Of a stretch of 64,000 nt of DNA, positions 35,154 through 36,980 are shown in pieces. The position numbers and the translations under genes were made by a program. The notes beneath the pieces are model-generated. The model worked only from the letters and a program-made list of their open reading frames with translations, was not told where the DNA came from and ran no database searches. Numbering within the stretch: position 1 is the first letter of the stretch; each line of letters starts with the position of its first letter. Origin of the DNA: Rickettsiales bacterium (lineage in GTDB: Bacteria; Pseudomonadota; Alphaproteobacteria; Rickettsiales; UBA6187); the NCBI GenBank assembly GCA_040507985.1, contig JBEVNR010000016.1, positions 3,509 through 67,508 on the forward strand, read 5' to 3'.

Positions 35154-35184
35154 TTGCTTTATATACACTAATTCGGTATATATA
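35154..35184 (+). promoter_or_regulatory. sigma70-like promoter for lipoprotein array B
   Basis: TTGCTT (35154-35159), a 17-nt spacer, then TATATA/TATAAT (35177-35184), about 45 nt upstream of the B1 start, which has an aggaga Shine-Dalgarno sequence. Confidence 0.45.
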
Positions 35185-35226
35185 ATGAATCTTAACCTTA
35201 AGGATTCGCGACGCGTAGGAGAAGCC

Positions 35227-35682
35227 ATGAAACGCTATGCCATATTCGCCTTAGTCGCGTTGGGGTTGTCCGCCTGCTCTCACGCGCGCCCTAACGCGAA
35301 ACTGTTAAACGGCGCGCCCACATCGGCGCCGGTCGCCTATAAGCAGGGGTGGCGCGACGGATGCGAAAGCGGCATGGCGATGACGGGCAACTTCGCGTAT
35401 AAAGCCGCCTATCGCTACCGGGTGGATAGGGCGATGTTGAACGACATGCAATATTATCGCGGAAGAAAAGAGGGCGAAACCTATTGCGCCCACTACACCA
35501 TGGCGGTGCAGTGGGAGTCCGGCGTGCTGCCGACGACGCCGTCGCAAGAGAAGTCGTTGCTTCCGGAGACCGACGGCGTGTTCGCGGTCATGGCCAAATG
35601 GGGAGCTCCGTCGTTGATCGATTTTCAAAACGTGCGCGGCGAAAGCAACGTGATGGGCGCGATTTTTACGCAATACCAATAA
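35227..35682 (+). CDS. Cys-motif lipoprotein family member B1 (151 aa, long C-terminal tail; closest to A5)
   Basis: aggaga SD. MKRYAIFALVALGLSAC lipobox. Motifs YKQGWRDGCESG and YYRGRKEGETYC. Confidence 0.8.
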   Translation: MKRYAIFALVALGLSACSHARPNAKLLNGAPTSAPVAYKQGWRDGCESGMAMTGNFAYKAAYRYRVDRAMLNDMQYYRGRKEGETYCAHYTMAVQWESGVLPTTPSQEKSLLPETDGVFAVMAKWGAPSLIDFQNVRGESNVMGAIFTQYQ

Positions 35683-35690
35683 ATATTCGC

Positions 35691-36017
35691 ATGATGAACG
35701 CCTTATTTTTTCGCGCGGCCATAGGGTTGTGGGCGGCGTCCTCCGTGGCGTCGTGCTCGCTGCCGCCGGGCAGTCCGCTCGGCTATCGACGGGTATTGCT
35801 GTACGGCGCGCCGACCGGAGGCGACGCGTTTTCCCGGGGCTGGCGCGACGGCTGCGACACGGCGCTGGCCATCGTCGGCTCCGGAACGCTGCGACTGGTG
35901 GGGGACAAGACGAACGCCTCTTACGCGCGACGCCTTTCGACTGATTCCGCGTATGAAAAGGGCGCGGAAATGGGCGGCAATTACTGCGCGCATTTTTTGG
36001 ACTACAACTCCGGATGA
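35691..36017 (+). CDS. Cys-motif lipoprotein family member B2 (108 aa; closest to A1)
   Basis: MMNALFFRAAIGLWAASSVASC lipobox. Motifs FSRGWRDGCDTA and AYEKGAEMGGNYC. It shares VGSGTLRLV with A1 (VGAGTWRLL). Confidence 0.75.
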   Translation: MMNALFFRAAIGLWAASSVASCSLPPGSPLGYRRVLLYGAPTGGDAFSRGWRDGCDTALAIVGSGTLRLVGDKTNASYARRLSTDSAYEKGAEMGGNYCAHFLDYNSG

Positions 36018-36020
36018 CGC

Positions 36021-36377
36021 ATGAAAACGTTGGCATGGACGCTTGTCGCGTCGCTCTTCGCGACGTCGTGCGCGGGAGGAAGAAGTCTGTCGCTCGGGCG
36101 TCCGTTCGCGCTTGACCCGACGCCGCCGCCCGGCTCGCCCCCCTTCCGCCAAGCGTATAAAGACGGGTGCGAAAGCGCCCTCTCCGGCATGGGGAATCCG
36201 TTCATCAAGATGTTCCACCATTTTTCCTACGATACGCGCATGGCGAACGACCAAACCTATAACCGTACGTGGAACGCCTCGAACGATTATTGCCGCTTGT
36301 TTTTGTTTACGGGCGACGAGCATCTGCAAAACGAGGAATTTCAACGCTACGACAAGCCCTTTTGGTTTATGGAATGA
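36021..36377 (+). CDS. Cys-motif lipoprotein family member B3 (118 aa; closest to A2)
   Basis: MKTLAWTLVASLFATSC lipobox. Motifs FRQAYKDGCESA and TYNRTWNASNDYC. Its RMANDQ matches RLANGQ in A2. Confidence 0.75.
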   Translation: MKTLAWTLVASLFATSCAGGRSLSLGRPFALDPTPPPGSPPFRQAYKDGCESALSGMGNPFIKMFHHFSYDTRMANDQTYNRTWNASNDYCRLFLFTGDEHLQNEEFQRYDKPFWFME

Positions 36378-36697
36378 TAAAAATGGCGGCGTTTTTAGCG
36401 ATGGCATGGGCGCTCGCCGGTTGCGGCGGGGCGCAACCGCTCATGCTGCCGATATGGAGGCAACGCATGATAGATCGAGGCATAGAAGGCGCGTCGCCGG
36501 TTTTTAACGCGGGATGGAGAGACGGCTGCGCCTCCGGATCCGCCACCGCCGCGCGTTACGAACAACGGCTTTTTCACGGGTTCCGTATGGAGGAAAGTCT
36601 CGTGAATAACGACGAATATTACGACGCCTGGCGTCGGGCGTTTCGGTATTGCCATCGCTATTTATACCAATATCACCGCAAGAGCTTCTCGAATTGA
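36374..36697 (+). CDS. Cys-motif lipoprotein family member B4 (107 aa; closest to A3)
   Basis: ATG overlaps the B3 stop (ATGA). Lipobox AWALAGC. Motifs FNAGWRDGCASG and YYDAWRRAFRYCHRYLYQY (A3 has YCHRYIFQY). Confidence 0.8.
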   Translation: MIKMAAFLAMAWALAGCGGAQPLMLPIWRQRMIDRGIEGASPVFNAGWRDGCASGSATAARYEQRLFHGFRMEESLVNNDEYYDAWRRAFRYCHRYLYQYHRKSFSN

Positions 36698-36698
36698 C

Positions 36699-36980
36699 AT
36701 GAAACGCCCGTTATGCATCGCCGTCGTCCTGCTTTCCGCCTGCGCGCCGACGCCTCTGGGATTGACGCGCCGTCCGCCCGGTCCGCCGGATTTCGTCTCC
36801 GGCTACGAAGACGGTTGCAACTCGGGGTTATCCGCCTTCGGCAACAGCTATTATAAAAGTTTTTACCGCTTCACCAAGCGTTTCGACGCGGCGGACGATG
36901 CCCTATACCAGAACGGATGGGAAAAAGGCTATGAGTATTGCCGGCAATATGCTATGAAATGGACGCACGGACCGTTATAA
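36699..36980 (+). CDS. Cys-motif lipoprotein family member B5 (93 aa; closest to A4)
   Basis: MKRPLCIAVVLLSAC lipobox. Motifs FVSGYEDGCNSG and LYQNGWEKGYEYCRQYAMKW (A4 has YCRQRAFKW). Confidence 0.8.
   Translation: MKRPLCIAVVLLSACAPTPLGLTRRPPGPPDFVSGYEDGCNSGLSAFGNSYYKSFYRFTKRFDAADDALYQNGWEKGYEYCRQYAMKWTHGPL

Follow-up and report, generated by a model that had tools for sequence, protein, structure and literature searches.

The DNA analysed here, called the window throughout, is a stretch of 64,000 nucleotides (nt) from contig JBEVNR010000016.1 of assembly GCA_040507985.1, a metagenome-assembled genome (MAG) labelled 'Rickettsiales bacterium'. It has a G+C content of 56% and comes from a chromosomal contig rich in housekeeping genes. 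On its plus strand lie two tandem arrays of five small genes each, array A (14716-17276) and array B (35227-36980), and the products of both are predicted lipoproteins of one family. Our main subject is array B which, judging by its sequence, is an ancient second copy of the five-gene operon, with the five subfamilies in the rotated order 5-1-2-3-4 with respect to array A.

The five open reading frames (ORFs) of array B were found where a first-pass annotation of this DNA had placed five lipobox proteins sharing the signature G-[WY]-x-D-G-C, and the genes, their sizes and their spacings are all as described there. B1 (35227-35682) encodes 151 amino acids (aa), belongs to the position-5 subfamily and has the sequence AGGAGAA before its ATG. 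B2 (35691-36017, 108 aa), whose second motif is degenerate, is a member of the position-1 subfamily, B3 (36021-36377, 118 aa) is weakly assigned to position 2, and B4 (36374-36697, 107 aa) and B5 (36699-36980, 93 aa) belong to the position-3 and position-4 subfamilies, respectively. The spacings between the genes are 8, 3, -4 and 1 nt, the negative value being an ATGA overlap of B3 with B4; the NCBI annotation starts B4 at 36383 (104 aa). Coordinate 35154, with which the region singled out in the first pass begins, marks a promoter and not a gene. Two minus-strand ORFs (35305-36036 and 35703-36407) were rejected as genes, since they lie opposite the conserved plus-strand genes.

Array A was recognised by matches to a hidden Markov model (HMM) of the family and has orthologous operons at loci L001 and L003 of the survey described below. 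It consists of A1 (14716-15501), A2 (15501-15866), A3 (15871-16215), A4 (starting at 16212 or 16224 and ending at 16616) and A5 (16632-17276). In NCBI, B1 corresponds to ABW189_03420 and A1 to ABW189_03325, a hypothetical protein.

A family of small predicted lipoproteins

All ten proteins of the two arrays have a signal peptide and a lipobox cysteine. The N-termini are charged at the start and then hydrophobic, with a cysteine 14-28 residues from the beginning, for example in LSAC, LAGC or VAGC. The lipobox pattern [LVI][ASTVI][GAS]-C is present in all ten and in nearly all members at other loci, with a few less canonical forms such as ATSC and GGGC. By sequence, the proteins are thus predicted bacterial lipoproteins, i.e. 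substrates of signal peptidase II. Beyond the lipobox they have a common core, G-[WY]-x-D-G-C ... Y-x(10)-C, in which the G, C, Y and C are invariant across the ten aligned proteins. Pairwise BLASTP comparisons give E-values of 1e-9 to 1e-22 at 25-39% identity, and the HMM of the family core gives 4e-20 to 2e-32 (9e-32 for B1, 4.5e-21 for B2 and 4.5e-31 for B3), its matches in the window being exactly these ten ORFs. The similarity is therefore far above chance and, as far as sequence can tell, the ten proteins form a single family, as had been proposed; every motif string cited for the pairing of A and B genes is indeed found in the sequences.

An exhaustive HMMER search of 1.84 billion representative sequences returned 575 clusters, almost all of them with lengths of 95-230 aa, and both core cysteines are kept in all 187 alignable homologues. 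Two other homologue searches were less informative: the first gave 6 hits and was dominated by a low-complexity insert of A1, and the third was dominated by one subfamily of the type-II operons introduced below. All named homologues are called 'hypothetical protein' and come from MAGs of Rickettsiales, Alphaproteobacteria or Pseudomonadota. We were not able to find any match for the ten window proteins in Pfam or NCBIfam, for 86 array members of other genomes in Pfam (even at E<=10), or for the family in a sequence search of the PDB, and the literature on Rickettsiales lipoprotein operons held nothing relevant. Except that its members are lipoproteins by sequence, the family, like its five-gene module, is thus undescribed, and it is found only in uncultured Rickettsiales-like bacteria.

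For B5 and B1, AlphaFold2 predicts a confident three-helix core of about 70 residues. The B5 model has a pLDDT (the confidence score of the prediction) of 86.3 and helices at residues 30-47, 50-55 and 68-88; in the B1 model the core reaches 94-98 and the C-terminal tail stays below 50. A Foldseek comparison of both models with the PDB gave no match. A short, often proline-rich tether connects the lipobox to the core. In the predicted core, one invariant cysteine lies in helix 1 (within G-[WY]-x-D-G-C) and the other in helix 3 (Y-C), so that a disulfide between them is plausible in the models; the two are about 40 residues apart and form no CxxC motif.

Some relatives depart from the single-domain form. 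P0007 and P0040 (226 aa each) are natural fusions of two family domains, with a lipobox only on the first domain of P0007. P0027 (787 aa) and P0152 (588 aa) contain 7-10 tandem units of about 45 aa with the pattern G-Y-x-D-G-C-x-S ... G-W-x-x-G-x-x-x-C, which means that the two-cysteine module also occurs as a solenoid-like repeat within one chain. Such fusions and multi-repeat relatives hint that the family domains may pack against each other. P0096 (975 aa), by contrast, is apparently a repeat protein of unrelated origin that was matched via a short motif only.

Two more features are limited to certain positions of the array. In one subgroup of type I, the C-terminus of A4 (about 16590-16613) and the position-4 genes of L001, L003, L005 and L006 have an extra, conserved C-[LV]-[IL]-C-P-[EN] ending that is absent from B5 and from other position-4 proteins and could be a redox or metal site. 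Gly/aromatic-rich tails are found in position-5 proteins (16950-17276 in A5) and in type-II position-4 proteins, and in 15 of 21 arrays the position-5 protein has a terminal Trp.

Gene order and age of the two operons

To see how the module is organised elsewhere, we surveyed one genome per species, seeding the search with A5 orthologues. This gave 24 loci, and contig look-ups and metagenome scans added more; a metagenome scan with B5 orthologues yielded no confirmed locus, and one with B4 orthologues yielded six, none of them B-type. Exactly five tandem family genes are present in 17 of the 19 arrays that are not cut by a contig end. A five-gene periodicity, which the first pass had proposed to look for in other genomes, is thus the rule. 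The genes are tightly packed, with a median gap of 2.5 nt and overlaps at 21 of 82 junctions. When loci are compared, a gene has its best hit at the same position of the other array, a pattern that is cleanest at positions 1, 3 and 5, and across about 30 loci the gene order is fixed and the orthology one-to-one by position. The operons fall into three types: type I comprises array A and about 15 loci, type II comprises about 10 AT-rich loci, and the third is type B.

The A genes, compared with their L001 orthologues, have ratios of nonsynonymous to synonymous substitutions (dN/dS) of 0.04-0.23, which indicates that A-type genes are under purifying selection. Together with the one-to-one orthology, these values support the proposal that the array holds five distinct, non-redundant subfamilies. 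All five members are conserved together across the arrays, with exceptions at L008, L028, L030 and L039. At L028 (9038-9988) there are only genes 1-2-3, followed by tgt, and L039 (4913-6854) is a four-gene cassette variant; five genes are therefore not universal. L030 is a B-type locus with B3-B5 only. L008 (9482-10731) is a partial three-gene second set in a genome that also has a complete type-I array (L007); its position-2-like gene lies on the opposite strand, and behind it come a position-4-like and a position-5-like gene.

The first-pass annotation had paired the B genes with A genes by eye and concluded that array B has the order 5-1-2-3-4. We compared the B proteins with position profiles built from nine type-I loci of other genomes, the window sequences being excluded. 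B1 scores best with position 5 (91.0 bits, next 70.3), B2 with position 1 (57.7, next 24.5), B4 with position 3 (79.6, next 63.2) and B5 with position 4 (86.8, next 74.1). Profile-profile comparison of B-type genes 1-5 with the type-I positions by hhalign likewise gives the assignment 5, 1, 2, 3, 4. Among all 120 possible orderings, 5-1-2-3-4 has the highest summed hhalign score (663.5, with the next at 596.1, a mean of 462 and a standard deviation of 54), and the unrotated order ranks 93rd with 417.2. Bootstrap support for the nearest group, calculated from distances in an 81-column core alignment, is 66% for B1 with position 5, 50% for B2 with position 1, 90% for B4 with position 3 and 71% for B5 with position 4. 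B4 and A3 are also reciprocal best hits (74.3 bits), and for four of the five B genes the A-type counterpart is nearer than any other gene of array B.

Taken together, the profile, hhalign and bootstrap results support the rotation as a global assignment and the pairings B1-A5, B2-A1, B4-A3 and B5-A4 also individually. The remaining pairing, B3 with A2, is weak and rests partly on elimination. It is favoured by small margins in hhalign (112.4 against position 2 and 106.9 against position 5) and in the B3 orthologues of L033, L042 and L043 (7-9 bits), whereas the window B3 itself is ambiguous, scoring higher with the profile of position 5 (69.7 bits) than with that of position 2 (62.1 bits), and the core bootstrap does not place it with position 2.

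Whole-module duplication had been suggested as the origin of the two arrays, and a nucleotide comparison of A with B as one way to check it. This comparison shows a single 52-nt patch of similarity over the G-W-x-D-G-C motif and nothing else, which rules out a recent duplication. A B-type operon with equal order and matching gene sizes is found at L029, L033-35, L042 and on a JGI contig, and in part at L030 and L043. Since the rotated B-type operon recurs in at least four other lineages, the split between A and B predates the divergence of these organisms. The idea of a whole-module duplication holds, then, as an ancient event: this genome has the whole five-gene set in two ancient copies, and the rotated operon was kept gene for gene at L029, L033, L042 and on the JGI contig. 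The further suggestion that the module came from a longer tandem array found no support, as we see no locus with more than five tandem genes. At L043 (3204-3638) and on the JGI contig, an ankyrin-repeat gene lies between B2 and B3.

Promoter, palindrome and the Rrf2 regulator

The leader before B1 is 247 nt long and AT-rich, and a consensus scan found one sigma-70-like site in it, the promoter-like element TTTATA-17-TATAAT on the plus strand (35158-35186). As had been stated, array B thus has a promoter-like element of its own, and this element is conserved in other genomes. Its spacer and -10 box are overlapped by a perfect 7-bp inverted repeat, TATATAC-N9-GTATATA (35160-35182), a candidate operator that is unique in the window (chance expectation 0.05 at <=2 mismatches). 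Related promoter/palindrome elements occur 62-70 nt upstream of the start of the B1 orthologue in L033, L042 and L043, and a search of 575 kb of sequence with a motif built from these sites gave matches before B1 genes of four lineages and nowhere else. Rfam found nothing in the B leader, its sole match in the window being a tRNA (46206-46277). Given this conservation, we infer that the promoter is a conserved one and that the palindrome serves as an operator, in all likelihood bound by the Rrf2 protein encoded behind the array.

The gene for this Rrf2-family regulator (37002-37436, plus strand) begins 21 nt past the stop codon of B5, and a GAF histidine kinase gene (37598-38872, plus strand; Pfam GAF_2, HisKA and HATPase_c) follows 161 nt after it, which agrees with the order described earlier. 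The regulator is a clear member of its family (128.7 bits in Pfam against a cut-off of 30; 114.6 against 73.3 for TIGR00738) and has four cysteines in the arrangement C-x8-C-x2-C-x6-C. NCBIfam places it at the superfamily level only, with CymR as the best sub-threshold match. An Rrf2 gene also directly follows B5 at L042 (again 21 nt) and at L033 (88 nt), and the proteins of the three loci are close orthologues with the cysteine arrangement in common. The Rrf2 gene is probably co-transcribed with array B. A strict rule by which the palindrome occurs only together with Rrf2 was rejected; L043 has the element, and its contig ends before the expected position of the Rrf2 gene. We also found no support for the GAF histidine kinase as a member of the system, as it is not adjacent to B-type arrays at other loci.

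B-type arrays have recurrent neighbours. A gene for gamma-glutamyltranspeptidase lies downstream of them in four lineages, and upstream, in genomes other than ours, there is a divergent operon for flavoprotein, cysteine-dioxygenase-like and phytochelatin-synthase-like proteins. The upstream genes at L033 (2673-8128), L042 (538-3382) and L029 (410-1189) include those for a TauE-family protein and a phytochelatin-synthase-like peptidase. By their annotation, these upstream genes point to cysteine and glutathione metabolism. A search for literature on Rrf2 in connection with gamma-glutamyltranspeptidase gave nothing relevant.

Possible roles of the two operons

The explanation that we prefer, and to which we give about an even chance, is that the two ancient operons encode isoforms of a five-subunit lipoprotein complex of the cell envelope, of which the B form is conditionally regulated by Rrf2. 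The five proteins of an array would be made together and would assemble on a membrane face of the periplasm, in a complex that holds one subunit per subfamily. Array A would be the standard copy and array B, with the order 5-1-2-3-4, the alternative isoform. Array B would be transcribed from its own conserved promoter together with the Rrf2 regulator, which would bind the palindrome over the -10 box, and this would confine the expression of array B to a particular thiol, Fe-S or redox condition. A more specific picture, possible yet on balance doubtful, is that of a novel complex in which five different helical lipoproteins, each stapled by a disulfide, form a ring or stack. It would be specific to environmental Rickettsiales-like alphaproteobacteria and would exist in two versions, swapped under Rrf2 by thiol, iron-sulfur or redox stress.

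Several observations weigh against the regulated five-subunit complex. Five genes are not obligatory, as the partial or variant sets at L008, L028, L030 and L039 demonstrate, and the pairing of B3 with position 2 is weak, since 85% of the bootstrap replicates of the 81-column core put B3 closest to B5. The link to Rrf2 is seen in three of the six B-type lineages with known downstream sequence; at L029, L030 and on the JGI contig, B5 is followed straight away by gamma-glutamyltranspeptidase. The Rrf2 protein is below all equivalog cut-offs (CymR 75.6 bits against 195, IscR 69.2 against 207.55), and the conserved upstream element could be just a strong promoter with a conserved spacer.

The five subfamilies might also be independent lipoproteins, each with its own, though related, envelope ligand, which share an operon for co-regulation only and form no complex. 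Partial three- or four-gene sets would be in line with this, and the conserved aromatic and acidic residues of the core could form a ligand site. We nevertheless find it rather unlikely, as the order is fixed over about 30 loci with start and stop codons that often overlap, the whole five-gene set and not single genes was retained after the duplication, and fused and multi-repeat relatives exist. What surrounds the B-type loci suggests another role, namely that the B-type array acts in periplasmic thiol or glutathione handling and not as an isoform of a structural complex: there are the flanking genes for gamma-glutamyltranspeptidase (four lineages), phytochelatin-synthase-like, cysteine-dioxygenase-like, flavoprotein and TauE-family proteins, the sub-threshold match of the Rrf2 protein to CymR, and the invariant cysteine pair. 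On the other hand, Rrf2 is the only such neighbour that array B of the window has, the organisms with B-type loci are related, so that common neighbours may be inherited synteny, the cysteines are too far apart for a CxxC motif, and type-I arrays do not have such a context. We therefore regard a thiol-handling role as improbable.

Much less still speaks for the two remaining possibilities. If the arrays were variable surface lipoproteins, serving antigenic or phase variation or acting in an immunity-like way, they would expand by recurrent local duplication. Tandem clusters of this kind are known, for example the 'lipoprotein-like' (lpl) cluster of S. aureus, in which paralogous lipoprotein genes lie head to tail (PMC4470592). 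A second, partial set is present in one genome (L008). Against this stand the constant number of five genes, an orthology that is one-to-one by position from species to species, the dN/dS of 0.04-0.23, the location of the arrays among housekeeping genes, and the fact that four of the five B genes resemble their A-type counterpart more than they do other B genes. This possibility is very improbable. Finally, homologues of virB8, virB9 and virB10 form a three-gene block on the minus strand (17368-20443), tail to tail with A5, and the arrays could accordingly encode accessory lipoproteins of type IV secretion in the manner of VirB7. Among the loci compared, array A of the window alone has this linkage; it is not conserved, and we reject the idea for that reason: type-I arrays have housekeeping genes as neighbours that vary by lineage, such as trpG/trpD at L003 and riboflavin genes-nusB-thiL at L009, L011 and L016, there is no vir neighbour at array B or any B-type locus, and no type IV secretion family matched the family proteins in the Pfam scans. 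We give it next to no credence.

We compared the family and its gene layout with known systems. The nearest named family, by sequence, is DUF2799 (PF10973, a Pfam 'domain of unknown function'), which comprises small proteobacterial lipoproteins with a helix motif of the G-x-x-D-G-x-x-G type. Only the distant single-gene relatives P0184 and P0187 match it weakly (E=0.0015 and 0.005; 17.7-19.3 bits), both below the gathering score of 25 bits, and neither the ten window proteins nor the 86 array members hit it at all, even at E<=10. Since DUF2799 is reached only below threshold and by distant relatives, the family cannot be filed there; our literature search found no paper mentioning DUF2799.

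For the layout of the genes, the tandem lipoprotein clusters of pathogens are the nearest analogy. Similar paralogous arrays exist in Borrelia and Mycoplasma, and clusters of the lpl type have variable copy numbers and lie on islands or plasmids. The arrays described here differ from them in being fixed at five, in having positional orthologues under purifying selection and in belonging to the core chromosome, and there is no sequence relationship. For a possible mechanism, the nearest analogy is the five pseudopilins GspG-K of type II secretion, or the minor pilins of type IV pili, i.e. five small paralogues in fixed order that build one heteromeric structure. These proteins have prepilin leaders and not lipoboxes, and their fold is different; we found no homology, and the comparison is an analogy only. 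VirB7 resembles our proteins in being a small lipoprotein, and array A lies beside virB8-virB10, but the linkage is not conserved, and five paralogues with a helical core stand against one short protein. The regulator, in turn, resembles the Rrf2 proteins IscR, NsrR, CymR and RirA in its family membership, its four cysteines and the palindromic candidate operator; the palindrome differs from the published IscR, NsrR and RirA sites.

About 575 sequence clusters are thus without a name, a domain model or a structure, and a fixed five-gene module extends across a whole clade of uncultured Rickettsiales relatives; conservation of this strictness is usually the sign of a core machine. Should the five proteins indeed assemble into one complex, they would constitute a new envelope component in a lineage relevant to the origin of intracellular life, and if A and B are two isoforms of such a complex, they would amount to a natural experiment on the replacement of subunits. 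For work at the bench, the conserved operator and the Rrf2 gene offer a direct handle, and a new domain family, with one model for each of the five subfamilies, could be seeded from the ten proteins and their orthologues.

Some further genes of the window deserve mention. Neither virB11 nor virD4 is adjacent to the virB8-virB10 block. Upstream of virB8 there is an RDD-family gene (20597-21202), and 0.2 kb from the latter a gene (21403-24930, plus strand) whose 1175-aa product has both NHL repeats and a von Willebrand A domain. Immediately 5' of array B lies an ORF of 526 aa (33399-34979, plus strand) with no match in Pfam or NCBIfam. A protein with a spore-coat-U (SCPU) domain, a domain typical of secreted pilus-like subunits, is encoded on the minus strand at 31071-32048. 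The tRNA gene at 46206-46277 is also on the minus strand and overlaps the 5' end of the ORF 44612-46234 (phosphoglycerate mutase), so that the true start of the phosphoglycerate mutase gene is probably further in.

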